This document shows positions 5,826 to 42,928 of a stretch of DNA of 64,000 nt, piece by piece. How positions within the stretch are numbered: the first letter of the stretch is position 1; every line of letters begins with the position of its first letter. A model generated the notes under the pieces. It was given only the letters and a program-made list of their open reading frames with translations. It was not told where the DNA came from and ran no database searches. Source of the stretch: a virus; the IMG/VR virus record IMGVR_UViG_3300050505_000370; one strand, written 5' to 3'. Position numbers and translations under genes: made by a program.

Positions 5826-5827
5826 GG

Positions 5828-9628: not shown

Positions 9629-9892
9629 ATGTCGATGAACCGAAGGGCTTTTATCCGAAGGACTATCTTAGGTGGAGTGGGGTTGGCTCTAACTCCTCTG
9701 GTTAAAGCACTTCCCCTCTCCAATGTAGCAACTATTAAGGAGTTTGACCATCTCTATATCCTAAGAATAGTAGGGCCTAGAATAAGAGATGATATGTTCA
9801 AATGCACCCCTTTTCTAGCCTACCTAAGGAAGAATAGTATGAAGTGTAATGGAGGAACCTCCATCATCTTCCCTTTCAAGGAGGCCCAATGA
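9629..9892 (+). CDS. small protein with twin-arginine (Tat)-like signal and a capsid-N-terminus-like segment
   Basis: N-terminus MSMNRRAFIRRTILGGVGLALTPLVKA. PFLAYLRKNSMKCNGGTSIIFPF resembles PFLAFLRAHALPHSGGAFIQNTF of ORF 14905-16032. Confidence 0.5.
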   Translation: MSMNRRAFIRRTILGGVGLALTPLVKALPLSNVATIKEFDHLYILRIVGPRIRDDMFKCTPFLAYLRKNSMKCNGGTSIIFPFKEAQ

Positions 9893-10505: not shown

Positions 10506-10751
10506 ATGGATGAGAAGCCAATTGCTCCTCCCCCCTCCACCCTTAATAAATTCTGGGGTAACTGTGAAGAGGGGGTCTTCCAATCCTCTGACTATGCTAC
10601 CTATGCGGTAACTGGGGTGAAGACCAATGAAGAAGGAGAGGTTATTAAATCAGGTACTATTCGCCGGACCAAAAAGAAGGCTTATCTACGCCTCTCATCC
10701 AAGCAACGTAGGCAGATTAGAAAGCTCTTAAAGAATGGAGGCAGCCCCTAA
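10506..10751 (+). CDS. hypothetical basic protein (81 aa)
   Basis: ORF in a tight array. Confidence 0.5.
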   Translation: MDEKPIAPPPSTLNKFWGNCEEGVFQSSDYATYAVTGVKTNEEGEVIKSGTIRRTKKKAYLRLSSKQRRQIRKLLKNGGSP

Positions 10752-17162: not shown

Positions 17163-18161
17163 ATGGCTCTTACCTATAAAGAATTCTACTCCGAACTCCT
17201 CAACACCTTCCCTAAGCTCTCCATCTTTCAGGCCAAGAGACTTATCAACCGGGCCTTACAGGAAATCTATAACTCCCGTCAATGGTCCTTCCTTAGAGCC
17301 TTCGGCCTTCTCTATTCCCCTGCTCTTATCTCCACCGGCTCCTTTAACGTTACCCAGTTCTCAAATGTGGCTGTGGCAGATGCCACTGCTATAACAGCCC
17401 TAACTGGCCTCTCCAACCCCCTTATCACTTCCAGGCAAATCCGCTTTGGAGCTTCCCCTCCCTATAACATAACCGCCTTTGACTCTGGCACTGGTAACCT
17501 AACCCTTGATCGCCCTGTGGTGGAAACCTCCAATGCAGCAAGCACCTATCGCCTCTACCGCGCCTACTACGGTCCCCCTTTGATTGGGGTAAATGGGGTA
17601 GAGACAACCGACTTTAAGCGTTATAACTCCATCTACAACCCTGCTATATCCCAATACTTCGTTAAGCTCCACCTTCCTGGGGATCTCCTCAACCAACTAG
17701 ACCCCCAAAGGAATCAATTTTCTAATCCCCGTTATCTCTATTCCCATGCTTCTTCCTCTACCGGCACCCCTATATTTGAGATGCACCCCCATTCCATCGC
17801 TGCTGCTGGTTTCCCTTGCTCCTTCCAACGCAAAGGGATATTCCTAACCAACGACTCTGATGTGCTCCCCCTTATCCTCGATGACCTTCTAGTCATGGAA
17901 GCAGCCTCTATGCATGCCTGTGATTGGGCTGCCAAGAACGTCGCTCGCTACCCAGAGCTAAAGGGGGTTAACTGGGTCCTTATGGGGCAGAAGCATAAAA
18001 AGGCCTACTCCAACATAAATGCGGCTGATCCTGGCCTTCTCGAACTAGCTCATAGAGACGATGAAGAAGCCTACCCACAAGATGAAGTTATAAAGGATTC
18101 CTATAGGAAGATAAGGGTGGTTGGGACGGATGATGCTACTGGGTTCTTTTCTATTCCATGA
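17163..18161 (+). CDS. virion structural protein (possible head-tail adaptor)
   Basis: 332 aa; position only. Confidence 0.4.
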   Translation: MALTYKEFYSELLNTFPKLSIFQAKRLINRALQEIYNSRQWSFLRAFGLLYSPALISTGSFNVTQFSNVAVADATAITALTGLSNPLITSRQIRFGASPPYNITAFDSGTGNLTLDRPVVETSNAASTYRLYRAYYGPPLIGVNGVETTDFKRYNSIYNPAISQYFVKLHLPGDLLNQLDPQRNQFSNPRYLYSHASSSTGTPIFEMHPHSIAAAGFPCSFQRKGIFLTNDSDVLPLILDDLLVMEAASMHACDWAAKNVARYPELKGVNWVLMGQKHKKAYSNINAADPGLLELAHRDDEEAYPQDEVIKDSYRKIRVVGTDDATGFFSIP

Positions 18162-18432: not shown

Positions 18433-20880
18433 ATGAAAAAGCTTCTCCTAGTAGCTTCCTTGCTACTAGCTATTTCTGCATCCACCCATGCCCAGAGCAA
18501 AATAGATGGGTGGTGTGAGCAAGGCAACCACACAGTCTCAACCCAAGGCCTTATCTCCACCACAAAGGTACAACAATCCTACCCCTCTTGCACCGTCACT
18601 ATCTTCGATGCTGGCACCTCTAACCTCTCAACCATCTTCTCAGACATGCTCTCTACCCCCAAGGTGAACCCCTTCACCGCTGACTCAACTGGCTATTGGT
18701 TCTTCTATGCCAATAACGGCCTTTATGACATTCGCTTTTCTGGGGCAGGGATCGCTTCCCCTTTTACCTTAGGGGACCATAAGATAGGGGATGCCACCAC
18801 GGGGGTTGGGGGGTCAGGCACCGCCAACAGGGTAGCCAAATTCACCGCCTCTACCACAGTTGGGAACTCCCAAATAACCGACAACGGCACCTCCGTTGGT
18901 ATCAACAACACCTCCCCTGATGCTTCTGCCCTTTTAGACCTAACCTCCACCACGAGGGCTCTCCTTCTCCCTCGGATGACTACCACCCAAAGGGATGCTA
19001 TAGCAGCCCCCGCTGATGGCCTAGTCATCTACAACACCACCACCAACGCTTTTAACATAAGGGCAAGTGGAGCATGGGGGGCGGTTTCTGGGGGAGGGTT
19101 GGTAGATCCAGGGGCAAATGGAATGCTCGCCCGCACAGCATTAAATACTACCGTTGCACGTACCATAACAGGTACAGCTAATCAAGTTACTCTAGCTAAT
19201 GGTGATGGATCTGGCAACCCCACTATTTCCCTCCCCTCTACCGTCATCCTAACCACAGCCCTTGTAGCTCCCACCATTGCAGGGGGGGTTAACTCAACCG
19301 ATGATCTTATCTTAGTAGGGACAACCAATGGAACTTCCACCAATGGAGATGTAACTATCCCCCTTCCCTCTACTGCCAAGCTCTCTATTGGTCCCTCAAC
19401 CCATCGCCTCCTCTATGACCCCTACTCCACCGACACTGCCAATGGCTCCCCTGTTATAATCTTCACCCCTCCCTTCCAGACCACTGGCCCCCGCAATGTA
19501 GGGATAATGGTGAAGCCAACCTTTGGCACCTTAACCGACAACACTCTTTTCCTAACTGCCTATAACGGACAATATGGCCTCCCCACTACCGTCCCTGCTG
19601 GTACTAAGGGAGCCCTCTCTGTCTATGAGGGCACCATAGATACCTCCCAAGCAGTAGCAGATATAGTCAACAACGAAGCAGGGCATCTACTTGGGGGTAC
19701 ATTCTTTATCCGAGGTGGAGCCCCCTATGATGGGGTAGACCTAGCCTTCACTATCTCCACAGTAGCCCCAGGTAACACAGGGATTCGTGGGATAAACATG
19801 TCCTTTACGAACAACATAGCCTCCACTAATGTCTTTGGCCTCTATGTCCAGCAAGCGGGGGCTAACGTAGCTACCTCAGGCCTTGTTATAACTGGCAACT
19901 GGACCAATGGGATTGACCTATCAGCAGGGGGACTCACCAATGCTATTAAGATAGCTAATGGTCAAGCGGTGGTAGCAGGAGGGGTTAATATCCTCTACCG
20001 TGATGTTGCTTCTACCTTTGCTACTATCGACTCCGATCTAGTCATTAACGTAGCTAACCCCTTCGTCCAACTTGGCTCCGCTGCTACTGGATGGCTCTAC
20101 CAAGTGGTGGATGGTCCCCCAGACCGCCTTCGCTTCTTTCGCCAAGGCCTAGGGGAAGCCTTCTTTGTAGACAATCAAAACACAGGCAATCTAGTTATGG
20201 GTTCCCCTACCTCAGGAGCCCTCGCCACTGGAGCTACCAACTCCTTCTTCTACCTAACCTCCATGGCAGGAGCCCCAACAGGTACCCCGACCGCCTACAC
20301 CGCTAAAATAGCTGAGGTCTACGACTCCACCAACGACATCCTCTATCTCAACAATGGTGGGGCAGGCCTATGGAAAACCATCAACGCAACCAACCCCTTT
20401 CGAGGTACCCTCATCACGGGAACCGGCTTCACCACCAACGATGGAGGCCGCTTTAACCGGGTGTTCCACAAAATAACCGTCACCAACGCTGCTTTCACCT
20501 GTGCTGCCCTAACCTGTGACGTAACTATCTTCACTCTCCCCGCCAAAACCCGCCTTGTTTCTATCATAGCTGACACCACCACTGTCTATACTGGGGGTAT
20601 AGTAACAGCAGCTTCTATGATAGTAGGAAAGACGGTTGGGGGAAATGAATACTTATTGACACATGATATAAAAACAGCTACGATAGTCAGGGGGCTAGTA
20701 ACTGGGGATATGGGGGCTACCCTAGCAACAGCAGCGGGGGTCCCAGTCCAGGGAGGTGATCTTCCAAGCTGGACCGCAACCACAAACGTCTCGGTTCGGA
20801 TAACTACTGTAACAGGTAATGTTAACGCCCTAACCCAAGGCTCCACGACCTACTATATCATTACAGAGAGGATGCTCTAA
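18433..20880 (+). CDS. tail fibre-like protein with N-terminal Sec-type signal peptide
   Basis: N-terminus MKKLLLVASLLLAISASTHA/QS. Thr/Gly/Asn-rich repeats and the motif LPRMTTTQRDAIAAPADGLVIYNTTTNAF. Confidence 0.6.
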   Translation: MKKLLLVASLLLAISASTHAQSKIDGWCEQGNHTVSTQGLISTTKVQQSYPSCTVTIFDAGTSNLSTIFSDMLSTPKVNPFTADSTGYWFFYANNGLYDIRFSGAGIASPFTLGDHKIGDATTGVGGSGTANRVAKFTASTTVGNSQITDNGTSVGINNTSPDASALLDLTSTTRALLLPRMTTTQRDAIAAPADGLVIYNTTTNAFNIRASGAWGAVSGGGLVDPGANGMLARTALNTTVARTITGTANQVTLANGDGSGNPTISLPSTVILTTALVAPTIAGGVNSTDDLILVGTTNGTSTNGDVTIPLPSTAKLSIGPSTHRLLYDPYSTDTANGSPVIIFTPPFQTTGPRNVGIMVKPTFGTLTDNTLFLTAYNGQYGLPTTVPAGTKGALSVYEGTIDTSQAVADIVNNEAGHLLGGTFFIRGGAPYDGVDLAFTISTVAPGNTGIRGINMSFTNNIASTNVFGLYVQQAGANVATSGLVITGNWTNGIDLSAGGLTNAIKIANGQAVVAGGVNILYRDVASTFATIDSDLVINVANPFVQLGSAATGWLYQVVDGPPDRLRFFRQGLGEAFFVDNQNTGNLVMGSPTSGALATGATNSFFYLTSMAGAPTGTPTAYTAKIAEVYDSTNDILYLNNGGAGLWKTINATNPFRGTLITGTGFTTNDGGRFNRVFHKITVTNAAFTCAALTCDVTIFTLPAKTRLVSIIADTTTVYTGGIVTAASMIVGKTVGGNEYLLTHDIKTATIVRGLVTGDMGATLATAAGVPVQGGDLPSWTATTNVSVRITTVTGNVNALTQGSTTYYIITERML
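20656..20684 (+). promoter_or_regulatory. Possible internal promoter TTGACA-N17-TACGAT
   Basis: AT-rich patch inside the 3' end of 18433-20880, about 200 nt upstream of the next ORF. Confidence 0.25.
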
Positions 20881-20881
20881 C

Positions 20882-21220
20882 ATGAAGCAAAGAGATAAGT
20901 TATTTTGCTTGATTGTCTTAACCATAGTGATGCTTCTTGGTACCATAGGGACAGAACTAGCTAATGGATCTAGAGGGGACACCCCCAAAGGGGTAACAAC
21001 CTCCATCAAGATCGAAGGAGATGACGCTTCCCGCATAAGGGACTCCTACAACAACATGGTTATGGCCCAACAGAACTTCCAATATAACATCCTTCAAGCC
21101 CGCTATAACCTACAAGTGCCAAAGGAGTATATCTTTAACATCCAAACCTTTTCCTTTGACTCCCCTCCACCTACCCCTCTTACCCCTCCAAAGGAAAAGA
21201 AGGAGGTTCCCAAGCCCTAA
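20882..21220 (+). CDS. hypothetical protein with N-terminal membrane helix (112 aa)
   Basis: N-terminus MKQRDKLFCLIVLTIVMLLGTIG. Confidence 0.45.
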   Translation: MKQRDKLFCLIVLTIVMLLGTIGTELANGSRGDTPKGVTTSIKIEGDDASRIRDSYNNMVMAQQNFQYNILQARYNLQVPKEYIFNIQTFSFDSPPPTPLTPPKEKKEVPKP

Positions 21221-22629
21221 TGTCCTCTTCTTTCCTAGCCTCCCTCTTCCAATGGCTAACATTCTCTGACCTTAAAGCCGCCTTAGCCTCCCGCCTTGGC
21301 GACCCCCTTAAGGTCCATTGGATAGACGACGAATTAGGTAGGTACATAAAGGAAGCCCTCCGCACCTATAACGCAATCTCCCAACTCCAACGAACCCGGG
21401 TGGTCTTCCCAACTAAGGTAGGAAAGGCCTTCTATGATCTAACCTCCACTGCTGATCCAGACACCTTTGTAGGGGGAACAGGAGTCTTAACCACCAACCC
21501 CCCTCTCAACTGTGGCTATTCTATTCTCGACCAAGAACTTATCAATGACATCCAATACCCCCTCATTGAACCCATAACAACCAACTTTACCGTCCTTGGC
21601 CTCCCTCCCCCAACTGACCAATTCACCTTGGACGACATAACAAGGGCGATTGAACGAAGGAGAAACCTATTCCTCCTCCACACAGCTACCCACATCTCTC
21701 ACTCTCAACCTAACTACCCTGCTCCCCCTAACTCAGGTAGAGTCCCCCTCTCAGACTCCACTATCTCCCTAAGGAGGATCTCCTGGAGGAATGCAGATGG
21801 AGCTTATACCCCTCTCTACAGGGAGGATGAAAACGAGGCAAACCTCCTTCTCCTTGATTGGGGAGTTAACTCCTCTATCCCCCAAGCCTATGCCCAATAT
21901 CTAACTCCCCCTTCTTCTGTCCAAATCATCCCCCCTTCCAACGACGCGGGGAAGCTTGACATTCTCTCTACTATCTCCCCCGCTGACCTAAACCCTGCTG
22001 TGGGGACTCTCCTCTCCATCCCTGATGACTGGGCTTGGGTTCTTAAGTATGGCTCCCTATCTGACCTTCTAACCAAAGACTCCCAATCCTCTGACCCCCG
22101 CTTTGCCTATGCAGAACAGAGGTATGTGGATGGCCTTCGTCTAGCCTCAATGCTCCCCCTTATTCAACAAGCAGTTATAAATGGCTCTTATGTCCAACCC
22201 ACTTCCCTCTCTGATCTAGATGCGGCTATCCCCTCTTGGCAAAACGATACCCCGGCTGCCCCAACTACCCTTGCTATAGCAGGGAGAAACCTAGTTGCCC
22301 TCTATCCTGTTCCTGACTCAGCCGCTTATGAGGTACAACTTGACATAACTAGAAACTTCCCTGTCCCTGTCATCAGCACTGATAAGGTTCAGATCCCTAG
22401 GGAAAGCATAGCTAGGATTCTCGACTATTGCGTCCACCTTGCTACCTTCAAGGAGGGGTTAGCGGAGTTTGAACAAACCTACCCCCTTGCAACCTCCTTT
22501 ATGCAACACTGCCTCTTACATAATTCTATCCTATCAGCCGAGGCAAGTCATTATGATATAGTGAAGGGGTTCTCTTCTAAGGAGGAGATAGACAGACCTA
22601 GATACTACCAAAAGGAGGAAGTGGCATGA
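21220..22629 (+). CDS. virion structural protein (469 aa)
   Basis: TAATG junction with the previous gene; position in the tail module. Confidence 0.45.
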   Translation: MSSSFLASLFQWLTFSDLKAALASRLGDPLKVHWIDDELGRYIKEALRTYNAISQLQRTRVVFPTKVGKAFYDLTSTADPDTFVGGTGVLTTNPPLNCGYSILDQELINDIQYPLIEPITTNFTVLGLPPPTDQFTLDDITRAIERRRNLFLLHTATHISHSQPNYPAPPNSGRVPLSDSTISLRRISWRNADGAYTPLYREDENEANLLLLDWGVNSSIPQAYAQYLTPPSSVQIIPPSNDAGKLDILSTISPADLNPAVGTLLSIPDDWAWVLKYGSLSDLLTKDSQSSDPRFAYAEQRYVDGLRLASMLPLIQQAVINGSYVQPTSLSDLDAAIPSWQNDTPAAPTTLAIAGRNLVALYPVPDSAAYEVQLDITRNFPVPVISTDKVQIPRESIARILDYCVHLATFKEGLAEFEQTYPLATSFMQHCLLHNSILSAEASHYDIVKGFSSKEEIDRPRYYQKEEVA

Positions 22630-22811
22630 ATCCAGCTTTTAAGAAGATGATAGAGGCAAAAAGGGCCAGCAAGGGGGGTAAGGGGGGAGCAACCTCCAAG
22701 GCGATGAAGGAAGGTTCCCCTGCTGAGGAAGCAGGAGAGAGCAGGGCAGTAGAGGCAAGGGAGATGAAGAAGGGGAAGAATAGAGGGAAGGGTAAGAGAG
22801 GGAAATACTAG
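22626..22811 (+). CDS. small Lys/Gly-rich basic protein (61 aa)
   Basis: ATGA overlap with the previous ORF. Confidence 0.45.
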   Translation: MNPAFKKMIEAKRASKGGKGGATSKAMKEGSPAEEAGESRAVEAREMKKGKNRGKGKRGKY

Positions 22812-22832
22812 AGGGGAGAAGGGGGGCTAGTT

Positions 22833-23057
22833 ATGCCAGGGAGTAAGTTCTCTAAGAAGGTAGATACCCCTAAGAAGGAAAGACAATGGGAGCACGTCTA
22901 TGAGTCTGTCCTTTCTAGGGGTGGGGATAAGGGGTCTGCGATAAGGCAAGCCTCTGGGGTTATCAAGAAGGAAAGCTCCCCCTCTTCCACCAGAGAGGAG
23001 AAGCCTGAGCCAATAAGGAAGCTTAGGGGTAGGAGAAGGGGAAGCATGAGGGCTTAA
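22833..23057 (+). CDS. small Lys/Arg-rich basic protein (74 aa)
   Basis: ORF with GGGGAGAAGGGGGG upstream. Confidence 0.45.
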   Translation: MPGSKFSKKVDTPKKERQWEHVYESVLSRGGDKGSAIRQASGVIKKESSPSSTREEKPEPIRKLRGRRRGSMRA

Positions 23058-23165
23058 TGGGAAGGCAAATGAAGAAAAGGGTGGAAAAAGGGAACACCAT
23101 AAGGGCTGGAGCTACCAAGAAGGCCGAGAGAAAGACTTCTTGCCTCCACTCCCGAAAGGCTCACT

Positions 23166-26100
23166 ATGAAATATATTGTGGCTTCGCTTGCTCTCGTTGT
23201 TCTTGTATCACTCCTAGAACCTAGAAGAGAAGGGGGAGAGGGGGGAGAGGTGGCTTTTAAGCGTCCAAAATCTAATAGGTATGCCTTAGGGGGGCTCCAC
23301 CTAGCTTCCTCTGTTGATGCTATGCCTCCCTTCAAATACCCTATCCTCAAAAATGTCCGTTCCTATAAGGAGGGGGTAATCCAACCACGCCCCGGCCAAC
23401 TTGTCTACAACTCCATAGCTATCCCTGACTCTATCCTCCACTCCATAGATAGGATGAACTCTGATCTCCCCACAGCTTCCCAAGCTTTTGCTTTCCTTAT
23501 AGGGGCAGGTTCCTCCCTCTATACCGACAACTCTCTTCACACAGGCTTAGTCCTTAGAGCTTCGGGGTTCTCGGGGGACCCCCTATCCTTCTGCTCTTTC
23601 CGCCCTAATAACTCCCCCGAGCCCTTCGACTATATAGGTGATCGCACCAAGATGGGGAAAGTTAAGGTAGATGGGACCTTCCGCAACATGGGAATAGTTC
23701 CTCCCTCTGTCCCCCCAACAGGCCCGGGCACAACAGTTCCCTCCCTAAATAGTTTCCAATCCACCACCATAGACGATGGCTATTTCACCGCTGGAGGATG
23801 GGTAACTGATACCCCTGCTAACATGGCTAATACAGTCAACGCAGGGACCGCTGCTAATGACGCCGCAACTCTCCTCTATGACTCAGGCTCAACTGGATGG
23901 GCTTGTGTTGGGGTAGCAGCCCCCCTAGACTCCTCCGCTTATGACCTAGGAGCTATTGTTATCCTTAATGAGGGTGGGGTAAATGCGGAGAAGGTTATAA
24001 TCCAGAACCTCTTCAAACCCATCAAAACCACAACAGTAGCCTCTATCATCTACGATAATGGGGTAGGACCGGGGCTTTGTACTATCCAACCAACTGCTTC
24101 TAAGCATAAAGCTTGGGAAGCAGACACCATGATTAAGATAAATACAGAGTTTGTCAGGGTCCTCTCTGTTTCCTTTGGGCAAGATGATGTCCCTTCTATC
24201 CGCTGCTCTACTACCTCCACCCACGTGGCGGGGGAATCCCTTTCAGGCTTACTCAACTTCCGAGCTTTCTTTAACAACGTCCATACTACAGGGGAAATAA
24301 TCTTTATTCGGTCTATTATCTTCCAGATGGGAGTAGGGACTATCCTTGGCTCCCTCGCCCCCAACACCCCCACCCAAGTAGGGACAGCAACAAAGGTTGC
24401 CGTTCTTGACCTAGGTAACGTAGGGGGGAGGGCTATCCAAGATGATGATGAAGTCAACCTTGTTGTTCAGATAAACCATGGTACTTCTGCGGCGGCCCCC
24501 CTCCCAACTATTCAAGAAGTTCAATTCCAACTTGACTGTGGAAATGGGACATTCACTAACTACTTCGCTATAATCCTCCGTCCCTCTGATCTAACCCCCG
24601 CCACCGACTCAGGCACTACCTCCACTCTAGCAGCCCGACAACAAGCTGTTACTCGCTCTGCTGCTGATGATACCATCTCTCCCTTTGAAACCACCCAATC
24701 TATCACAAGGGAGAAACTCCAGCGGAGATTAGCTAGGGCTCAGGCTAGAGGAGCTACTAATAAGGTAGCGAAGATCCAAGCTAAACTAGCAGGATTAGAT
24801 GGGGGAACAGGAGGAAGTGGTGGGTCTGGAGGGAGTGGTGGGGAAGGGGGAAGTACGACCTCAGGAGGGGGAACTGGTTCAGGCACTTCCATCCAGGTCC
24901 CCCCATCCTCCATAGATGAATTCCCAATTAGGGTAAAGGTGAAGGATGTAACTAGGGTAGGGGCTGATTTTGGGAAGGGGTGGGCAGACATCTCCAAACT
25001 TAGGGTAAGACTTCTCTTCTCCAACCCAAACTCAGTTGCGGTAGCCCCCAAGGTTCGTCTCTCCTCATGGTGGATAGGAGGGGCGTTTGGGCCTGATGCA
25101 GGCGACCGAGGGACCCCCTACACCTATCGCTTCCGCTATCGTTCCTCTGAGAGTGGGGCAAAATCATATTGGTCCCCTGCTACTCGCTCTGGGGTAATTC
25201 CCCGTCGCCAACGTGTCCAACTTGTCGGCACCCCCTCCCCTGATGCTCAAGCAGATAAGATGGATTGGGCTAGGTTTGGGGGGTCTATCCTTAAGTGGAA
25301 GCTCATCGGCACTGCCCCCAACTCAACCGCTACCTTCAACGATGACTTCCCCGACGACACCCTTACCTCCCCTGATCTCGATATTGACATAACGGAGGGC
25401 TTCCAACCCTTCCCAATCCAAGGCCTTCCTGTCACGGGCACTTGCTCTACCTCAGGAACCATGGTGACAGTCACCGCCGGGTCTATCTCCACCTCTATGG
25501 CCCCTGGTACAGATGTGGTGATAAACGGTATCCACTGTACCCTCTATGCTCCCCCTATCTCTACAACCCGCTTTGAGATAGTAGAGTCGATAGGCACCCT
25601 TGTTGGGGTTTCCCTCTTTATCCCTGCTCCTACCCTAATGGGCCAACCCCTCCCCTCCCTTTGGGGACCCTTCGGCCAAGGGGAACAAGGGTCTGTGATG
25701 TTTGCCTGTGGGGATCTCTCTAACCCCGGTCGCCTCTATTGGACAAACCCTGATGACCCTGACTTCTCCAACTACCGCAACTCTTTAGATGTAACCTCCC
25801 CATCTGAGCCCCTAATGGGGGGCTTTATGTTCGACAACAAATCTTTCGTTTTCTCCACCCAAGACCTCTACTACATCTATCCCTCTCAAACCATCCTAGG
25901 CCGTCTAACCTTCAAAGCCTCTCGCTCTGGCCTTGGGAAAGGGGTAGTTGGGCGCTACTCCTTCTGCGTCTACAACGGTAAGGTCTACTTTATTTCCCCT
26001 GATGGTATCTATGTAACAGAGGGATCTATCCCCCAACTTATCACCCCCGACCTAACCCCCCTCTTCCCCCATGAAGGACAGCCGGGGGTAACAACCAATG

Positions 26101-27353
26101 GGTATATCCCTCCTGACTTCACCCTTCCTAACTTCCTCCGCTTGGCAGGAGGGAATGGGGAGATTAGATTTGACTATAAAGCAACCGACTCCAACTTCTA
26201 TTCCCTCACCTTTAAGGAAAGCGGAGGAGCTTGGCTCCCCGACACCTATGGCCGCCCTGTTACCTGCTCCTATTGTGAAGAAGGGGAAGAGGGGAAGGGA
26301 ACTGGGAGGTGGTTTGTTGGGTCTACCAACGGTAAGCTCTACACCCTCTCAGGCTCCTCAGACGACGGCCTTTCCATCTCCTGTCAAGTCCGTCACCCCT
26401 CCGACTCCTATGGGGATGATCGCTCTGAGAAGCTATGGGGGGACTTCCTCCTTGATTGCAACCCCAACGGGGCAAACATAACCGCCCAACCCGGCTTCAA
26501 TAACTACGCCACCCTCACTACCCCCCTTACTTTCTCTGATGGGGCAAGGATAGAACCTCCCACTATAATCGACATAAACTCAGGGATGGGAATCTACGCC
26601 CGCAACGCTACCCTTGATGTTTCTTGGTCTTCTATCTTAACCCCTGAACTTTTCTTCTGGGAACCCTCTGTTATTGACAAACCAGAAGATTCAGCCCGTC
26701 GAGTAACCGACTTCTATAACGCGGGGATGGAACAAGCAAAGTGGTGGCAGGGCCTTAGGATTCGCTTCAACACATACGGGGTGGCGAAGTCCTTCAAGGT
26801 GCAAGCTGACAACGGGGTGAATGGGGTATTCACGGACGTTCCGGGGGCAACCTTTACCCTCACCTCCAACGGGGAGAGCGTCCAAGCAGTCTCCTTCCCT
26901 ATCCCCTATATCGCCCATCTCTCTCGCCTTCTCCCCACCGACTCCATCCCTTGGTCTGTTATAGATGTGGAGTGGGTAACCGAACCCGAACCTGAGCTTG
27001 TTCTCCTCTATGAACCCCAACCCTCCACTTATGGGATGAGGGGATTTTGGTTTAGTCGTGACCAATATATAGCTCATGTCTCTACTGCTCCCCTCTCTCT
27101 TGTCTTCATAGCAGATGGAGTAACCCAACCAACCCTAACCATCCCCTCAAGTGGGGGGATCTTCAAGAAGGACTACGTTCAGCTTCCTGCGCTAAAGCAA
27201 AAGGTCCTCCAACATATCCTCTCCTCTACCCAACCCTTCCGCCTCTACCGAGATGCCTGTGAGGTGAAGATTAAAAGTTGGGGGAGTTCAGAGGCTTTTA
27301 GAACAATCAATCCCTTTGGGGATGTCCACAACACCTTCGGGGCGAGGGTCTAA
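23166..27353 (+). CDS. giant virion structural protein (possible tail nozzle/tubular B analogue), 1395 aa; start uncertain
   Basis: Contains a (GGS)n linker and beta-propeller-like repeats. Alternative GTG start at 23250 is preceded by GGGGGAGAGGGGGGAGAG. Confidence 0.5.
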   Translation: MKYIVASLALVVLVSLLEPRREGGEGGEVAFKRPKSNRYALGGLHLASSVDAMPPFKYPILKNVRSYKEGVIQPRPGQLVYNSIAIPDSILHSIDRMNSDLPTASQAFAFLIGAGSSLYTDNSLHTGLVLRASGFSGDPLSFCSFRPNNSPEPFDYIGDRTKMGKVKVDGTFRNMGIVPPSVPPTGPGTTVPSLNSFQSTTIDDGYFTAGGWVTDTPANMANTVNAGTAANDAATLLYDSGSTGWACVGVAAPLDSSAYDLGAIVILNEGGVNAEKVIIQNLFKPIKTTTVASIIYDNGVGPGLCTIQPTASKHKAWEADTMIKINTEFVRVLSVSFGQDDVPSIRCSTTSTHVAGESLSGLLNFRAFFNNVHTTGEIIFIRSIIFQMGVGTILGSLAPNTPTQVGTATKVAVLDLGNVGGRAIQDDDEVNLVVQINHGTSAAAPLPTIQEVQFQLDCGNGTFTNYFAIILRPSDLTPATDSGTTSTLAARQQAVTRSAADDTISPFETTQSITREKLQRRLARAQARGATNKVAKIQAKLAGLDGGTGGSGGSGGSGGEGGSTTSGGGTGSGTSIQVPPSSIDEFPIRVKVKDVTRVGADFGKGWADISKLRVRLLFSNPNSVAVAPKVRLSSWWIGGAFGPDAGDRGTPYTYRFRYRSSESGAKSYWSPATRSGVIPRRQRVQLVGTPSPDAQADKMDWARFGGSILKWKLIGTAPNSTATFNDDFPDDTLTSPDLDIDITEGFQPFPIQGLPVTGTCSTSGTMVTVTAGSISTSMAPGTDVVINGIHCTLYAPPISTTRFEIVESIGTLVGVSLFIPAPTLMGQPLPSLWGPFGQGEQGSVMFACGDLSNPGRLYWTNPDDPDFSNYRNSLDVTSPSEPLMGGFMFDNKSFVFSTQDLYYIYPSQTILGRLTFKASRSGLGKGVVGRYSFCVYNGKVYFISPDGIYVTEGSIPQLITPDLTPLFPHEGQPGVTTNGYIPPDFTLPNFLRLAGGNGEIRFDYKATDSNFYSLTFKESGGAWLPDTYGRPVTCSYCEEGEEGKGTGRWFVGSTNGKLYTLSGSSDDGLSISCQVRHPSDSYGDDRSEKLWGDFLLDCNPNGANITAQPGFNNYATLTTPLTFSDGARIEPPTIIDINSGMGIYARNATLDVSWSSILTPELFFWEPSVIDKPEDSARRVTDFYNAGMEQAKWWQGLRIRFNTYGVAKSFKVQADNGVNGVFTDVPGATFTLTSNGESVQAVSFPIPYIAHLSRLLPTDSIPWSVIDVEWVTEPEPELVLLYEPQPSTYGMRGFWFSRDQYIAHVSTAPLSLVFIADGVTQPTLTIPSSGGIFKKDYVQLPALKQKVLQHILSSTQPFRLYRDACEVKIKSWGSSEAFRTINPFGDVHNTFGARV

Positions 27354-27366
27354 GGAGGAAAAGGAA

Positions 27367-27687
27367 ATGGCTAATGACTTCTATCGGATAATAACCCTAA
27401 CCAATGCAAACCAGAACTACTCCCTCTATTCCCTTATGGTTCTGGTCGATGCAAATGTGGCTAGGAACTTCATGCAGCTTCAAATCTCAGCCCCCGACTC
27501 CAACACTAACAACATAGCTCTTGGGGCTAATACTATGGCTGGTATAACTGATGGAGATCAACTCTTCCCAACCTCCTCTAGGAACTTGGAGTCAAGTAAT
27601 GGGAAGAATGAAATCTCCGTAACTAATAAGTTTGTCCGGTCAGATGCAGCAGGGCAAAAGCTTTTCATAAGGGGGATGTGTCACTAA
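27367..27687 (+). CDS. hypothetical protein (106 aa)
   Basis: Start at ATG 27367 with TAAGGAGGAAAAGGAA upstream. Confidence 0.5.
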   Translation: MANDFYRIITLTNANQNYSLYSLMVLVDANVARNFMQLQISAPDSNTNNIALGANTMAGITDGDQLFPTSSRNLESSNGKNEISVTNKFVRSDAAGQKLFIRGMCH

Positions 27688-29243
27688 TGATAAGAACAAC
27701 AAAGAAATTTCTCTCTTCCTTTCTTCTCCTTCTTCTCTTAGTTACTCACCTCTATGGGCAACAGGACCCTGCGGCGGTAGTTCGCTTTGGGACAGCCCTT
27801 CCTGCTTCCTGTAATCCTGCTGGCCCAAATATCTTCTTCAAAACCTCTGCAACTATTGGCCTCTACCAATGCCTAACCCCCAATGCGTGGACTATTGTGG
27901 TGCCGGGGGGTGGAGGAACTGGGAATGTAACTACGGCTGTTACCCTAACAGCCAATGCTATAGTCCTAGGAAATGGGACGGTTGATACAAAGGTTCTTGC
28001 CTCCTTGGGCTCATCAGGGCAGGTTCTAACCTCCAATGGTGCAGGTGTTCCCCCCTCCTTTCAAGCCTCTCCTGGCTTAACTGTTGGTACAACCACAATA
28101 ACGGGAGGAACTTCCACAAGGATCTTCTTCAATAATGCAGGGGTCTTAGGGGAATATACCCTCTCTGGTACTGGCACAGTTGTAGCAATGGCTACCTCTC
28201 CAGACATAACCACTTCCCTAACCACCCCCTCTGCTTCCTTCTCTCTAGTCAATGCTAATGCTACCACAGTTAACCTTGCTGGAGCAGCAACCACCTTAAA
28301 CTTAGGGGCTAATGCTGCTATGGTGCTAAACTTTGGGGGAGGAGCTACAGCAGCAGAGTTCCGCTTCCTAGAACCCTCTGGCTCCGGTACTAACTTCACT
28401 GCCTTCAAAGCAGTTGCCCAAGCAGCTAACATAACCTATTCCCTCCCTGCAACGGTTGGAGCAGCAGGGACCTTCCTTAGGGATGCAGCAGGGAACGGAG
28501 TGCTTGATTGGGCTATCCCTGCTGGTTCGGGAACTATTAACTCAGGAGTAACCAATGCTATTCCTAAATATACAGCGGCTACAACTATAGATGATTCCCT
28601 TCTAACCGATGATGGAACCACTCTATCCTACACAGGAACAGGAGGATTCTCTCTAACAGGGGGGACAGGAGCGGGGACTCTAGAGCTTATCCAAGGAACA
28701 GCCCCCTCTCTTGGTACTACTTCAGTTAAACTCTATGCTGATACCGCTGTTACTTCCTATAAACTTCGTCTTCCTGCTGCCGCGGGTACGGGTTTCCTTT
28801 TAGGAACTAACACAGCTAATGATGTAGTTCTAACCTCTGTTGGTTTCACTGGAACTGGAAATGTAGTGAGAGACACTAGCCCCAACGTGACTGGCCTAAC
28901 TGTCTCTAATGCAGCAGTCACCAACAACGTAGTTCAAAATAGCCAAAGTGCAGCCTACACAACCGTCCTAGCAGATGCAGGGAAGCATATTCTTCATCCT
29001 ACGGCTGATAACAACCCTAGGACCTTTACTATTGACTCTAACGCCAATGTTGCTTACCCCATTGGTACCACTATAACCTTTGTAAACCAGATCAACACAG
29101 TGACTATAGCAATTACCTCGGACACTCTAGTCCTAGCAGGAGCAGGAACCACAGGCTCCCGTACTTTAGCAGCTAATGGGATTGCTACAGCTATTAAGAT
29201 AGCTTCAACTGTGTGGATTATCAATGGAACGGGACTTACCTAA
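27687..29243 (+). CDS. tail fibre-like protein with Sec-type signal peptide
   Basis: Starts at the TAATG junction. N-terminus MIRTTKKFLSSFLLLLLLVTHLYG/QQ. Fibre motif GSSGQVLTSNGAGVPPSFQ. Confidence 0.6.
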   Translation: MIRTTKKFLSSFLLLLLLVTHLYGQQDPAAVVRFGTALPASCNPAGPNIFFKTSATIGLYQCLTPNAWTIVVPGGGGTGNVTTAVTLTANAIVLGNGTVDTKVLASLGSSGQVLTSNGAGVPPSFQASPGLTVGTTTITGGTSTRIFFNNAGVLGEYTLSGTGTVVAMATSPDITTSLTTPSASFSLVNANATTVNLAGAATTLNLGANAAMVLNFGGGATAAEFRFLEPSGSGTNFTAFKAVAQAANITYSLPATVGAAGTFLRDAAGNGVLDWAIPAGSGTINSGVTNAIPKYTAATTIDDSLLTDDGTTLSYTGTGGFSLTGGTGAGTLELIQGTAPSLGTTSVKLYADTAVTSYKLRLPAAAGTGFLLGTNTANDVVLTSVGFTGTGNVVRDTSPNVTGLTVSNAAVTNNVVQNSQSAAYTTVLADAGKHILHPTADNNPRTFTIDSNANVAYPIGTTITFVNQINTVTIAITSDTLVLAGAGTTGSRTLAANGIATAIKIASTVWIINGTGLT

Positions 29244-29244
29244 A

Positions 29245-29973
29245 ATGAAAAAGCCTCTTCTTTTATCTCTTCTCTTTCTTTTCCTCCTTCTAGTGCCTGT
29301 TACTGCCTTTCCTCAATCTGCTCAGTCACAGGTAATGATTAGTCACCACATTACAGGAGGTGGGAGTGCCCCTGTCTTTGATGCAGCAACTACTAGTACC
29401 AACGTTACAAGTTTCTCCCATACTTGTACGGGTTCAAATAGGTTCCTCTTAGTGTCTATCTCCTCGGATGCAGGTGGGGGAACAACTTGGACAGCAGCAA
29501 CCTATAACAGCGTTAGCATGACCTTAGTTGATACTCTCAACAATGCTACCGATGGGGCTAACGTCCGCATAACTGTCTACTCCCTTATTGCTCCTGCCTC
29601 AGGGTCTAACACTGTTGCTGTAACTAGAACAGGTCCTCCTGCTAACTTTATAGTCATAGCTGCAAGTTTCACTGGGGTTAATCAAACTACTCCCTTAGGT
29701 ACCTCTGTTACAGGTTCAGGAACAACTGCTACTCAACCGAGTGTAACTGTGACAAGTGGGGCTAGTGAATTAGTCTATGATGCAATAGCAACCCTCAACT
29801 CCAATGCTGATACCTTTACCGCAGGGAGTGGACAGACTAAAAGGGCTAGTGCTGATGACGCAGGGAATGTAGGAGGTGCTACCTCAACAGAAGCGGGGGC
29901 TGCTTCAGTAGTTATGGATTGGTCATCCCCAACCCGCTATTGGAGTTCTTTAGGGGTAAGTATTAAGCCATGA
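29245..29973 (+). CDS. secreted-type beta-rich protein (242 aa) with signal peptide
   Basis: N-terminus MKKPLLLSLLFLFLLLVPVTAF/PQSAQS. Confidence 0.55.
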   Translation: MKKPLLLSLLFLFLLLVPVTAFPQSAQSQVMISHHITGGGSAPVFDAATTSTNVTSFSHTCTGSNRFLLVSISSDAGGGTTWTAATYNSVSMTLVDTLNNATDGANVRITVYSLIAPASGSNTVAVTRTGPPANFIVIAASFTGVNQTTPLGTSVTGSGTTATQPSVTVTSGASELVYDAIATLNSNADTFTAGSGQTKRASADDAGNVGGATSTEAGAASVVMDWSSPTRYWSSLGVSIKP

Positions 29974-31772
29974 AATATCTAGGTCTTTTATTTCTCCTAA
30001 TTATTTGTCTATCCCTTCCTTCTTCAGCACAAGCAGCAACCTACTATTCAAGTGCTACTGGAAGTGGAACAACCTGCTCTATAGGTAGCCCCTGTGACCT
30101 CCAAGCGGGCCTTGACAAATTAGCTGCTGGTGATACCCTTCTTGTTCGTAGTATAGGAGGGACTTATAATGGGAAGTTTACTATCTCTACCTCTGGGTCT
30201 TCAGGTAGTCGGATAACCATTCAAGCCTACCCTTCAGAGTGGCCTCTTATAGATGGCTTCCTATCAACCACCTTAAATGGTGCTATTAACTCCTCCACAA
30301 CTACCATTGTCTTAACTAGTGGGGTTGGATTCCCCAATGGCTTCGTCATAACCTTCCATGATGGGACGGAAGGGAGTGAGGAACAGGTAATGCTTGGGGG
30401 GAAGAGTGGTAACACCTATAGCTCATGTACAAGGGCATGGAATGGTACAACTGCTGTTAGTCACTCAAATGGGGCAACTATTATCCTAGGGGGAAATCAA
30501 TTTGATGTTAGTGGGAGCTTTCTAACCTTTAAGAACCTCACCATAACCAACACTGACCCTACCCGAATTCAAACCCCTGCCAATAGTCAAAATGCTCCTC
30601 ACTTAAGGGGAGAGAGTTTCTTTAATACTGGTGATAATAATCAGTTCATCAACTGTGTGGTTAGCAATATGCAGGATGGGATTTTTAATGGGCCTGCTGC
30701 CTCAGGACCCGAAATCTATGGATGTCTATTCTACAACAATGGGTATGTGGCGGGAGGAGCTTATAATGGTCATGGGCTCTATCTAATCCATGAAGATGGG
30801 GCAGCAACAGCTAATGTAAAAGAGAATATAATCTTCAACAACTCGAATCATGGTATAAAGGGGGATAGTCAAAATGGTTCGACCATCAATATTTTTAATG
30901 AGGGGAATATATCCTTCAACACAGGGGCTTGGACTAATGGTTCTAGTCGCAACTTTAATATCCTCATGTCCACTAACAATGGGACAGCCTCGGGAATAAC
31001 TGTTAAGGACAACTTCACTTTCCATCCTGATGGAAAAAACGGAACGAATCTAAAGCTAAATATGTCTGGGGGGAGTCTGTCTGTTACAGGGAATTGGATA
31101 GCCCATGGAATTCCGGTTGATATTGCGAATTCAACTCCATTAACGTTTACGGGTAATAATGTTAGAGGAACAAATAATTCTGGAGGTGGTAACAACACCA
31201 TCATCCTCCATATTCCAGCAGCCAGCCCCTCTACTACATGGAACTCTAACTCCTATTTCAACTCCATTACCAGTGGTCTAGGGTACTACTTCGATACAGG
31301 AAGCTCTAATCTATCATTCTCTCAATGGAAAACAAATTCAGGATTTGATGGTTCAACTACAGAAACCCTAAGTGCTCCGGGGAGTAATTGGACTTTTGCT
31401 AGGGCAAACATCTATGATGCTAATAGAGCTAATGCTATTGTCTATAATTGGACTGGAGGAACAACTGCAACGGTAAGTGTGGCAGGAGTGTTCAATAATG
31501 GAGATACCATAGCTATCCATGTAGCAGAGGAAGGGACCTTCCCTGCTGGTACCCCTACTTCATCTGTAGTAGTAAGTGGAGGGAATATAACCGTTCCAAT
31601 GAATGGCACTTCTGTTGTTAGTCAAGTTGGATCTGATGGTTCAATAATAGTCACCCCTATCACTATGCGACCGACCTTTGCAGCTTTCGTCCTCTATCGA
31701 ACTGCTCAGGTTGCGGTAGGGAGTACAGTTAGTGGAAAAGCAACTCTAAGTGGGAAGGCTAAGATTAACTAG
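29970..31772 (+). CDS. right-handed parallel beta-helix (pectate-lyase fold) protein with signal peptide; possible depolymerase/tailspike
   Basis: Signal MKYLGLLFLLIICLSLPSSAQA/AT. N-terminus ATYYSSATGSG..CS.GSPC.LQAGLDKLAAGDTLLVR.GTY is typical of this fold. Repeated N.. / NNSNHGIKGD-type turns. Confidence 0.7.
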   Translation: MKYLGLLFLLIICLSLPSSAQAATYYSSATGSGTTCSIGSPCDLQAGLDKLAAGDTLLVRSIGGTYNGKFTISTSGSSGSRITIQAYPSEWPLIDGFLSTTLNGAINSSTTTIVLTSGVGFPNGFVITFHDGTEGSEEQVMLGGKSGNTYSSCTRAWNGTTAVSHSNGATIILGGNQFDVSGSFLTFKNLTITNTDPTRIQTPANSQNAPHLRGESFFNTGDNNQFINCVVSNMQDGIFNGPAASGPEIYGCLFYNNGYVAGGAYNGHGLYLIHEDGAATANVKENIIFNNSNHGIKGDSQNGSTINIFNEGNISFNTGAWTNGSSRNFNILMSTNNGTASGITVKDNFTFHPDGKNGTNLKLNMSGGSLSVTGNWIAHGIPVDIANSTPLTFTGNNVRGTNNSGGGNNTIILHIPAASPSTTWNSNSYFNSITSGLGYYFDTGSSNLSFSQWKTNSGFDGSTTETLSAPGSNWTFARANIYDANRANAIVYNWTGGTTATVSVAGVFNNGDTIAIHVAEEGTFPAGTPTSSVVVSGGNITVPMNGTSVVSQVGSDGSIIVTPITMRPTFAAFVLYRTAQVAVGSTVSGKATLSGKAKIN

Positions 31773-32867
31773 ATGCCTATTGCTCCACCAAACCTTCCAA
31801 ACTTTGACCGTCGTGTAGGGGAATACCTCCGCCTTTTAGCACAGGAGCATAACGACCTAGAGGGGAAACTAACTAGATTCTACCAACAATACCAATCCAC
31901 CCCGCTTCCCTCTGTCTCTCCTCCCCTCCCGACCGACCCTAACCCAACTTCTCCTGATCCAACTTCTCCTGTGGGGGCTGGAGTTGGGGGTGGAGGAGAT
32001 GGAGGGGGAGGTGGGAGGGGTGGAGATTTAGGAGGGGAAGGATTAGGTGGGCCGGGTGGATCTGGAGGGGTAGGAGGGGTAGGAGGGGTAGGGAGGGACC
32101 TTCCTCTTGCTTCTATCTTATCTGCTAGAAGCTCCTCCCCTCTCCACCTCGATTCCCTCCCTGGGCGCTCGGGCAATCCCCAGATCCCCTTCTGCCCTCG
32201 TGTAGCTGAACTCCCCTCTATAGGCGACCCCCAGAGCCAAGAAGGTTCCCTTTGCATCTTCAACAATGGCATCTATCAATTCGATGGACAGACTTGGGGG
32301 TTTATCTCAGGGTCTTCCCCAGTTGTTGGAGGGAATGAAAAGGTCTACCTCCAAAATAGAACAACAGTTGCCTTTAGTGGAGCAGCCGCTACTGATGGGG
32401 TACTCCACCAAAACACCCCCATCCTTCCTGCTGACTTCAACGCCTTAGGAAAGATCCTCCATGTCTATGCAACTGGCTCCTATAGGACTCAAGCAGGGCA
32501 AACCCCTACCCTTCTAATAAAGGTATTCCTAGACTTCATAGGTACCTCCCCAACAACCCTCCTTCAATGGCAGACAGCAGCGACAACTGCTAGTGTCATT
32601 AACCAATGGTCCCTTGATGCTTACATCTCAGTTAATAACCCAGGAGGGGTGGGGGCAGGGGCATTGAGAGCTACAGGGGATTTTAGGATAGGGCTTAATG
32701 CAGCTAACTTCATTGAGACAGTTCAGGTAGCTAATCCCTTTGGGGGGCTTGTTGATCTAACTATCAACCACTCCCTTGACTTCACGGGACAATTCAGCAC
32801 CCAAACAGGAGGCACCCCCTTTAACTCCATTACCCAAGATTGGACTTTAATTGAACTCTTAAATTAG
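31773..32867 (+). CDS. fibre/receptor-binding-like protein with Pro- and Gly-rich linker (364 aa)
   Basis: Gly-rich run GAGVGGGGDGGGGGRGGDLGGEGLGGPGGSGGVGGVGGVG, then a beta-rich C-terminal domain. Confidence 0.5.
   Translation: MPIAPPNLPNFDRRVGEYLRLLAQEHNDLEGKLTRFYQQYQSTPLPSVSPPLPTDPNPTSPDPTSPVGAGVGGGGDGGGGGRGGDLGGEGLGGPGGSGGVGGVGGVGRDLPLASILSARSSSPLHLDSLPGRSGNPQIPFCPRVAELPSIGDPQSQEGSLCIFNNGIYQFDGQTWGFISGSSPVVGGNEKVYLQNRTTVAFSGAAATDGVLHQNTPILPADFNALGKILHVYATGSYRTQAGQTPTLLIKVFLDFIGTSPTTLLQWQTAATTASVINQWSLDAYISVNNPGGVGAGALRATGDFRIGLNAANFIETVQVANPFGGLVDLTINHSLDFTGQFSTQTGGTPFNSITQDWTLIELLN
32064..32090 (+). repeat. Tandem 9-bp repeat GGAGGGGTA x3 (then GGGAGGG); G-quadruplex-type G-run pattern
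   Basis: Read directly; encodes GGVGGVGGV within ORF 31773-32867. Confidence 0.9.
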
Positions 32868-42740: not shown

Positions 42741-42928
42741 ATCTTCCTCACTTTCACCTTAGTTATCTGATTATATCCAAACATCTGAAGAAGCTCCTTT
42801 GCCCTCTCCTCCTTCTCTCGCCTGTAGACAGGGTTGGAAGAAGGGAAGTGAGATATATGTTCTCCTTCTTCTATCTCAAACTCTAACTTGACTAGATGCT
42901 TTCTTACCTTGCCGGTGGAGTCAATCAT
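42737..42928 (-). CDS. hypothetical protein (63 aa)
   Basis: ATGA overlaps on both sides. Confidence 0.5.
   Translation of the reverse strand: MIDSTGKVRKHLVKLEFEIEEGEHISHFPSSNPVYRREKEERAKELLQMFGYNQITKVKVRKI

Follow-up and report, generated by a model that had tools for sequence, protein, structure and literature searches.

According to the textbook account, tailed phages are assembled wholly in the cytoplasm, and the phage proteins known to be exported to the host envelope (T5 Llp, T4 Sp and Imm, phi80 Cor, and the Sec- or SAR-exported endolysins) are not parts of the virion. Soluble phage depolymerases are freed at lysis and give halo-forming plaques; those that we know of carry no export signals, lysis being their one way out of the cell. 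A direct precedent for signal peptides on the fibres or spikes of tailed phages was not found in the literature (coverage was incomplete, and a precedent may exist), and in one study the absence of signal peptides was taken as an argument for the phage or virion origin of a protein (PMC6199706). Here we analyse a 64-kb window (the whole stretch of DNA, 64,000 nucleotides from the IMG/VR virus record IMGVR_UViG_3300050505_000370), the tail module of which encodes five proteins, named A, B, E, F and G, whose N-termini are, with high probability, working Sec export signals, with export and periplasmic folding, probably disulfide-assisted, as the expected fate of the proteins. The finding is real and extends across a phage lineage, and no described assembly pathway of tailed phages explains it. 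As the favoured explanation, to which we assign a rough probability of 0.45, the five proteins form an exported, disulfide-stabilised set, derived from tailspikes and fibres, that acts on envelope polysaccharide. The window virus, a podovirus from soil, is a relative of the acidobacterial Tunturi phages; its sole cultured relatives are Tunturi_1 and Tunturi_2, phages of Tunturiibacter (Acidobacteriota), and other related loci are referred to by L numbers. The five genes and the predicted signals lie as follows (aa, amino acids).

18433-20880, + strand: A, an 815-aa predicted exported tailspike-type protein (signal, head-binding domain, PF26696 module, variable C-terminal part)
18433-18492, + strand: predicted Sec signal peptide of A (MKKLLLVASLLLAISASTHA/QS; n-h-c anatomy, AGGAGG, modelled as a detached helix of residues 2-15)
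20882-21220, + strand: B, 112 aa, its translation coupled to that of A and its N-terminus a signal or signal-anchor
27687-29243, + strand: E, a 518-aa predicted exported fibre-type protein, 55-62% identical to a signal-bearing 755-aa protein of L013
27687-27758, + strand: predicted Sec signal peptide of E (MIRTTKKFLSSFLLLLLLVTHLYG/QQ; n-h-c anatomy, start overlapping the upstream stop)
29245-29973, + strand: F, a 242-aa predicted exported tail-protein-like domain (PHROG 553 and 2106, 'minor tail protein')
29245-29307, + strand: predicted signal of F (MKKPLLLSLLFLFLLLVPVTA/FPQ; n-h-c anatomy)
29970-31772, + strand: G, a 600-aa predicted exported Pel9A-like right-handed beta-helix and putative exopolysaccharide (EPS) depolymerase (PF22842; structure model; Foldseek)
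29970-30035, + strand: predicted signal of G (AQA/AT; n-h-c anatomy)

The N-termini quoted in an earlier, sequence-only reading of the window were all found in the sequence at the coordinates given there, and four of them (A at 18433, E at 27687, F at 29245 and G at 29970) are indeed classical n-h-c Sec signals. The n-region is positive in all five proteins (MKK in A and F, MIRTTKK in E, MK in G and MKQRDK in B), and the h-regions are uncharged, 13-20 residues long, with a mean Kyte-Doolittle hydropathy of 2.06-2.62. Written out, the signals are MKK + LLLVASLLLAISAST + HA/QS in A, MIRTTKK + FLSSFLLLLLLVT + HLYG/QQ in E, MKK + PLLLSLLFLFLLLVPVTA/FPQ in F and MK + YLGLLFLLIICLSLPSSAQA/AT in G. 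Small residues at -3 and -1, which had been claimed for all four, are present in A, G and F, where predicted sites fit the -3/-1 rule without Pro at +1 (THA/Q, AQA/A and VTA/F respectively); the LYG/Q of E is poorer, with Leu at -3, and in F a cut after VTA suits the rule better than the TAF/PQ first proposed. B (open reading frame (ORF) 20882) opens with a hydrophobic helix, as had been noted, in which MKQRDK is followed by an 18-residue hydrophobic core, longer than the others, and its cleavage is ambiguous (ANG/S, or an uncleaved anchor). A lipoprotein reading of the four signals was rejected, no [LVI][ASTVI][GAS]C motif being present. The suggestion that the proteins are membrane-tethered assembly intermediates is not supported, given the positive n-regions and good cleavage sites, by which the mature parts would be released on the periplasmic side.

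That the signals are artefacts, with the true starts lying downstream, or accidental hydrophobic runs, is very improbable. One of the six candidate N-termini is of this kind. ORF 23166 does begin with a hydrophobic helix, but this is not the start of a gene: homologues of the nozzle protein align to the 1395-aa ORF from residue ~29-31 only, and an in-frame GTG at 23250 is preceded by a purine-rich ribosome-binding run, GGGGGAGAGGGGGGAGAG. Starting there gives (M)AFKRPKSNRYALGGLHL / MAFKRPKSNRYALGGLHL, which fits the family consensus MAxxxRxxxxxxxxxGLxL, and the sequence in front of it is an annotation artefact.

23166-23249, + strand: spurious 5' extension, outside the gene (homologue alignment; ribosome-binding run before GTG 23250)
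23250-27353, + strand: nozzle protein, core tail, 1367 aa (corrected start, from the alignment and 48 IMG/VR loci)

The nozzle protein is 28% identical over its full length to Tunturi_1 gp31. A non-coding spacer of ~190 nucleotides (23058-23249, +) precedes its gene, and an upstream in-frame ATG makes the false hydrophobic N-terminus.

The other five genes have either a strong ribosome-binding site or stop-start coupling, and none has an alternative start behind a ribosome-binding site. A perfect AGGAGG stands 5 nucleotides 5' of the ATG of A, B starts 2 nucleotides past the stop of A, the ATG of E overlaps the stop of the preceding ORF, F starts 2 nucleotides after the stop of E, and G overlaps F by ATGA; because this coupling is tight, there is no better downstream start for any of them. 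No internal start from which a cytoplasmic isoform might be made was found in A, E or G, and in F an in-frame ATG nine codons past the cleavage site has no ribosome-binding site, so that such an isoform was rejected as a general explanation. Signals were scored with our own crude n-h-c heuristic. At a strict threshold (score >= 36), six of ~85 likely genes were flagged, all between 18.4 and 31.8 kb, as were 2 of ~116 antisense or out-of-frame ORFs, which means that the scorer also picks up some random frames. A stronger argument against chance than these counts is the conservation of the signals across dozens of homologues, by which the artefact is refuted for A, B, E, F and G.

In the relatives the character of the signals is kept while their sequence drifts (L008, L009, L013, L017, L165-L212 and Tunturi_1). 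Large tail-module proteins with signals occur in L008, L009, L013 and L017, in many of 48 nozzle-anchored IMG/VR loci, and in Tunturi_1, where gp12 (MKKFIQLALLFILPAAASA/QT), gp13, gp14 (annotated as 'tail spike protein') and gp17 ('virion structural protein') carry them. These four are consecutive large genes of Tunturi_1 (L001, PP887698; 10371-23028, ~12 kb), all with classical signals. The paper that describes the Tunturi phages is silent on the signals of gp12, gp13, gp14 and gp17 and reports no virion proteomics (PMC11924767). Where a homologue lacks the signal, its sequence begins at the predicted mature end: P0004 opens with M-ATYYCSPAGSG where G has AQA/ATYYSSATGSG, and signal-less A-like proteins open with MARGxxQGxVExGG or MQRxQGxVExG, the equivalent of the mature end of A.

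A second signature tracks the first. Among 89 non-redundant copies of the N-terminal domain of A, Cys is found at both of two sites (GxCExGG ... SYPSCTVTV) in 54 of the 64 copies that bear a signal (the other 10 are without the full pair) and in one of the 25 scored as signal-less, and that one has a signal missed by the rule. The remaining 24, which have about ten different N-terminal types, carry Val or Ala at the first Cys site (Fisher p ~9e-13 for signal versus Cys pair, not corrected for phylogeny). Confinement of the Cys pair to the signal-bearing versions is expected if those fold in the oxidising periplasm. E has, behind its signal, a Cys-loop module of its own.

27771-27896, + strand: Cys-loop N-terminal module of E (LPASCNPAGPNIFFKTSATIGLYQC..NAW), with 93 homologous modules

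All 93 copies retrieved (LPATCxPxxGDVFFKTxATxGxYQCxxxNTW) have both Cys, and ~88 of them stand directly behind a signal; internal copies also lie within signal-bearing proteins, and the three scored as signal-less probably have truncated or missed starts. The module was absent from 50,697 isolated phage records. An immunoglobulin domain was considered for it and rejected: a PDB profile search finds only the 'GxYxCxAxN' motif of contactin, and the module is too short, so that we take the likeness for a coincidence.

Neighbouring genes agree with each other in this respect. E, F and G all have signals in the window, and the related trio of L013 has Sec, Tat-type (MNRRDFVKKG...AFA/Q) and Sec signals in turn, whereas the canonical fibres that share the C-terminal domain of E (L002-L006) have none, and neither have their downstream partners. 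F and its 254-aa positional equivalent in L013, which has the Tat-type signal, were considered as orthologues that had swapped one signal type for the other, but no homology between them is detectable, and what the comparison supports is confined to the presence of export signals on adjacent genes of the two cassettes. Small genes beside A-like spikes have lipoprotein-type signals (…LLLASC/A) in L166 (4402-4893), L169 (4590-5081) and L175 (4402-4893), and one in L211 (5322-5861) has a Tat-plus-lipobox-like signal, MQRREFLRKSATVGAVVVVAPSALMLEGC. The lineage encodes varied export signals in its tail region.

These observations bear on the view that nothing is exported, and that the proteins are ordinary virion fibres of the cytoplasm in which the N-terminal helix is structural or membrane-probing and secretion is avoided, for example, by quick trimerisation or by a phage block of Sec late in infection. 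The position in the structural module and the fibre or spike domain content are as this view predicts, and tailed-phage assembly is cytoplasmic. We nevertheless consider it improbable, because sequence drift has spared the positive n-regions and the small residues at -3 and -1, the signal-less homologues dispense with the helix altogether and begin at the cleavage point, the Cys pair follows the signal, relatives have signals of the Tat and lipoprotein types in these gene neighbourhoods, and the homologues of G in bacteria have a signal of the kind seen in G. Covariation and conservation are poorly compatible with both this view and an artefact.

What lies behind the signal of A is a domain that in other phages would attach a spike to the particle.

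18493-18792, + strand: predicted tailspike head-binding (particle-docking) domain of A, with Cys28 and Cys53 (model confidence (pLDDT) 92-98; Foldseek; profile)
18955-19092, + strand: 'TTTQRDAI...GLVIYNTTTNAF' module of A (precomputed Pfam PF26696; pLDDT ~91-93)

Residues 21-120 of A are modelled at pLDDT 92-98, and residues 221-815 at below 50. The best PDB matches of the domain in Foldseek are chains of the Pan3 tail complex (9vyg_o/m; E 4e-3, TMt 0.47) and Pam1 (7eeq_A; TMt 0.57), and an independent sequence profile retrieves the same Pan3 and Pam1 chains ('Tail spike protein', 'Tailspike head-binding domain') at E 0.03-0.08. By tblastn the domain matches the N-terminal ends of proteins annotated as tailspikes in cultured phages (44-47% identity over ~50 aa), and in the viral structure library BFVD it has 22 matches at E <= 1e-3; searching the PDB with the complete sequences of A, E and G turned up nothing useful. 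Each of the matches to A is weak alone, yet they agree in pointing to a tailspike head-binding domain. Its mean column identity is 60%, and residues 1-107 of A, signal included, are 41% identical to Tunturi_1 gp12. The fibre string TTTQRDAI..PADGLVIYNTTTNAF that the sequence-only reading had picked out was recovered in A; PF26696 is listed on A, on most of its homologues and on many bacterial surface proteins, although our own Pfam scan (E <= 0.01) reproduced neither this precomputed match nor that of PF22842 on G. The slot of A between connector and adaptor is also filled in L016, L017, L165, L166 and Tunturi_1 (gp12); the orthologue of L016 has neither signal nor Cys, and those of L017, L165, L166 and Tunturi_1 have the signal. 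In L200 (IMGVR_UViG_3300046782_000297) two tandem tailspike genes (4350-6479 and 6483-8639) share the head-binding domain only, at ~50% identity, and differ in their distal parts; the first copy carries a signal and, at site 1, Cys, and the second lacks the signal and has Val there. After A-like genes and before the adaptor, counterparts of B (98-124 aa, with clear cleavable signals) occur in L165, L166, L167, L169 and L175, and B itself has no family match in Pfam, PHROG and profile searches.

An exported protein with a docking domain may yet reach the virion. In the main rival explanation, a possible one to which we give less weight than to the favoured one, A, and perhaps E and F through it, is a late, extracytoplasmic decoration: the periplasmic protein docks by its head-binding domain at the adaptor-nozzle junction of finished particles once the holin has opened the inner membrane, the periplasm or the lysate being the meeting place. 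Put more generally, it is conceivable to the same degree that assembly in this lineage proceeds in two compartments: the accessory spikes would leave the cytoplasm by Sec and be oxidised in the periplasm, and only after the holin breach would their head-binding domain attach them to ready-made particles. On this route a spike could have a second role before lysis, as a periplasmic enzyme that destroys receptor or EPS. In phage P22 the tailspikes bind to heads spontaneously in vitro, which is the final step of assembly, and the lesions made by holins are wide enough for the compartments to mix while the outer membrane is still intact; from these two facts, a micromolar periplasmic pool confined under the outer membrane could decorate particles within seconds. 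In favour of decoration are the combination in A of a signal with a tailspike head-binding domain (for which Foldseek and the profile both rank Pan3 and Pam1 chains at the top), the matches of the domain to tailspike N-termini of cultured phages, its strong conservation in ~65 signal-bearing lineages with variable C-termini, the slot shared with signal-less orthologues, and the lack of any large signal-less spike in Tunturi_1. Set against these, such a pathway has not been described for any tailed phage, and we found no paper on it; the signal-bearing and signal-less paralogues side by side in L200 fit two destinations better than one; the PDB matches of the domain are weak (E 4e-3 to 0.08); and a search for a docking platform gave no clean correlation between the presence of the nozzle domain and that of an A-like gene. 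The sequence-only reading had also raised an envelope-associated assembly step. In the sense of a membrane-containing virion this is not supported, the window encoding an ordinary tailed podovirus, but it lives on in modified form, as exported spikes that dock later, a possibility that the head-binding domain behind the signal of A makes more plausible.

E departs from the docking arrangement: its usual fibre N-terminus has been replaced by the signal-linked module, which speaks against decoration since the docking end was given up for it. The fibre string GQVLTSNGAGVPPSF read in E earlier is present there. With the first 140 residues of E as query, 529 representative clusters were retrieved at E <= 1e-3, some of them by the Gly-rich repeat alone.

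28929-29240, + strand: C-terminal ~100-aa domain of E, 76-91% identical in >3300 metagenomic proteins with unrelated N-termini
31773-32867, + strand: H, 364 aa, no signal, tail-fibre candidate (N-terminus 'MP..P.LP....R'; before an acetyltransferase-like gene)

About two thirds of the best 120 matches of this C-terminal domain are ordinary signal-less fibres, which are usually followed by a gene for 250-330 aa. Because its conservation is unusually high for a fibre end, the domain is probably a joint for a distal tip protein, as far as its sequence tells, and not the receptor-binding tip, and we infer that F is the tip partner of E in a two-part fibre. F covers PHROG 553 and 2106 with residues 20-242 (E 7.6e-15 and 8.9e-12).

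The beta-helix proposed for G was borne out by structure prediction and Foldseek. The AlphaFold model (pLDDT 86.7) has the helix from residue 24 on, and its matches are Pel9A (1ru4, TMt 0.49), rhamnogalacturonan lyase (5olr, 0.49) and XylC (0.44), together with PL6 and GH136 enzymes and phage depolymerases. PF22842 is precomputed on P0001, which is identical to G, and on homologues, and is probably near threshold. Homologues of G that are 37-48% identical have signals and adjoin Wzy, Bac_transf (priming transferase) and glycosyltransferase EPS genes in bacterial contigs, and the family is chromosomal mainly in Acidobacteriota and Gemmatimonadota. The GC content at third codon positions is 0.33-0.37 in E, F and G, compared with 0.51-0.65 in the core structural genes and 0.45 in H, and this foreign composition marks the three as a recently acquired cassette; the composition of the related L013 trio is native to its own genome. 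Upstream of that exported fibre cassette, L013 has at 1-2142 a ~2420-aa protein with a GGDEF (diguanylate cyclase) Pfam match.

The N-terminus and position of H recur in L016, L017, L170, L171, L178, L200 and L206, and although it has no family match in Pfam, PHROG and profile searches, H is likely, to judge from this recurrence, to be the core fibre of the family. L007/L205, L204 and L207 are without any signal-bearing tail protein. Since some relatives do without such proteins and H is kept across the family, the exported set is accessory.

In the favoured explanation, an exported set acting on envelope polysaccharide, A, B, E, F and G would pass through SecYEG late in infection into the periplasm of the host, which would be a diderm and probably an acidobacterium, where signal peptidase I would cleave them and they would fold with disulfide bonds. 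The set would have arisen from tail appendages, A being a tailspike that keeps its head-binding domain and E plus F a two-part fibre, and G would be a polysaccharide-cutting beta-helix captured from EPS-processing enzymes of the host type. During the latent period the periplasmic pool would bind and degrade the cell's own exopolysaccharide or receptor polysaccharide, and at lysis it would be released as free protein, with the benefit that progeny would not be trapped on matrix or debris and that late-arriving phages would adsorb poorly. Assembly of the particle itself would be cytoplasmic, and its fibre would be H, which is conserved and has no signal.

The role of an exported protein that modifies the host surface fits G best, since G lacks a docking domain and has homologues within the EPS clusters of bacteria. 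Tunturi gp13, gp14 and gp17 are likewise without a docking domain, gp17 with Pfam matches to Beta_helix and to a chitobiase C-terminal domain, and proteins of this type count against decoration of the particle. Together with the exchanged end of E, the accessory status of the set and the L200 pair, they fit the exported set. Of the roles that the sequence-only reading had offered, that of exported host-surface-modifying or superinfection-related proteins ranks first. The core of that reading, real export signals on fibre- or spike-like proteins within a virion module, is supported and strengthened.

Several points weigh against an exported set that never joins the virion. A retains a well-conserved docking domain in the exact slot of signal-less orthologues, whereas one would expect a free enzyme to have shed it, as the G-type proteins have done. 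Tunturi_1 spends ~12 kb on four such proteins, which is much for accessory functions, and its only signal-less fibre candidate has 124 aa, which is little for a receptor-binding set. Sec reaches the periplasm only, and no route across the outer membrane is evident, C-terminal sorting signals (PEP-CTERM, type IX, LPXTG or autotransporter) having been looked for by eye on these proteins and none seen. The purpose that an exported fibre of E plus F would serve in the periplasm is not obvious. The exported set and late docking are, however, compatible, as the spike could first be a periplasmic enzyme and dock afterwards.

The window is most of one tailed-phage genome, and proteins identical to those of the window were found on a 69.8-kb metagenomic contig. 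The core genes lie on one strand with ejection-type large proteins (up to 1748 aa), the replication genes on the other (−), and the capsid is of the HK97 type.

7310-9595, + strand: large terminase, core gene
10751-12982, + strand: portal, core gene
14905-16032, + strand: major head protein, related to that of the Tunturi podoviruses
17163-18161, + strand: connector-like 'tail protein', core gene
21220-22629, + strand: SU10-type adaptor, core tail, no signal (Pfam PF24175, E 9.5e-18)

In its DNA the window is close to no isolated phage, and nearly identical DNA was found in none; the window and the Tunturi phages have head proteins of 29% identity and a common gene order. Electron microscopy shows Tunturi 1-3 to be podoviruses with short tails (PMC11924767), and the lineage is large and comprises podoviruses of about 60-70 kb, mostly uncultured, with two cultured members, Tunturi_1 and Tunturi_2. 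For most proteins of the window our Pfam scan was almost empty, and lysis genes and phage-encoded secretion, Dsb or peptidase functions were not recognised. Between terminase and portal, an 87-aa ORF (9629-9892, +) without a family match has a Tat-like twin-arginine start, MSMNRRAFIRRTILGGVGLALTPLVKA/LP, and is a further candidate exported protein, within the packaging module. On the other strand, a 1003-aa protein (42925-45936, −) combines an N-terminal domain of the uracil-DNA-glycosylase superfamily with a family A DNA polymerase, and a J-domain (DnaJ) protein is encoded at 46327-46995 (−; Pfam PF00226, E 4e-16); that the latter keeps pre-proteins export-competent is pure speculation.

We thus have a soil-phage lineage with conserved, apparently functional export signals on proteins with spike or fibre domains, one of which (A) keeps a docking domain. 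If the first explanation holds, a large exported set of enzymes and adhesins derived from appendages would remodel the host envelope, an accessory function of a class new for phages, with a bearing on EPS-rich soil bacteria and on depolymerase discovery; if late docking is true, tail decoration would be finished outside the cytoplasm, which would be a new assembly route. The covariation of signal and Cys is a simple sequence rule that separates exported from cytoplasmic versions of the domain of A in metagenomes, and annotation pipelines that name such proteins 'tail fibre' for host prediction would need adjusting. With Tunturi_1, Tunturi_2 and their host, Tunturiibacter psychrotolerans X5P2, in culture, the question is directly testable.

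Among known systems, the tailspikes of podophages (Pam1, 7EEQ; Pan3, 9VYG; Jilinvirus ECOO78, Myosmarvirus Spe5P4/MyoSmar and Idiomarinaceae phage 1N2-2) share the N-terminal domain of A by fold and profile, and A resembles them also in its place in the tail module next to adaptor and nozzle and in its variable distal part. The difference is that their domain begins at residue ~1, with no signal and no Cys pair (as in the cultured Escherichia, Serratia and Idiomarinaceae phages), whereas in A, in Tunturi gp12 and in ~65 relatives it stands behind a predicted cleavable Sec signal and has the Cys pair. For G the nearest counterparts are the periplasmic or secreted Pel9A-like beta-helix glycanases of bacterial EPS clusters (PF22842), with the same layout of signal plus beta-helix and no anchor domain; AlgL, PslG and BcsZ are parallels for a glycanase within exopolysaccharide clusters. 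What sets G apart is its place within the tail module of a phage, where its gene is coupled to the fibre-like genes E and F and the cassette is low in third-position GC content. Soluble depolymerases, the subject of reviews (PMC6966330, PMC5380687), are alike in that a free polysaccharide-degrading beta-helix is made alongside the virions. Membrane-containing phages of the PRD1, PM2 or phi6 type were rejected as a model, the window having a large terminase, portal, head protein, SU10 adaptor and nozzle instead.

Llp, Cor, Sp, Imm and the exported endolysins are phage-encoded, have export signals and act outside the cytoplasm during infection, as we propose here. They are, however, small, dedicated, unrelated in sequence and encoded outside the structural module, while those of the window have 240-815 aa (up to 1600 in relatives), carry spike or fibre domains and lie among tail genes; they have no PHROG or Pfam match to superinfection-exclusion proteins and depart from the small lipoprotein or membrane-protein format, and it is possible that their effect, by removal or masking of receptors, is similar to superinfection exclusion. 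The closest architecture is that of the MAT fibres of Bdellovibrio bacteriovorus, which have a signal, a conserved beta-rich N-terminal domain of ~130 aa, a shaft like that of phage tail fibres and a variable tip (PMC10769870). They resemble the window proteins in layout, and differ in being products of cellular genes that are shown on the predator's own surface, whereas the window genes are viral. What is new here is that tailspikes, fibres and depolymerases have export signals, for neither the tailspike nor the Pel9A-like family is known to join a tail-module context with a cleavable signal.

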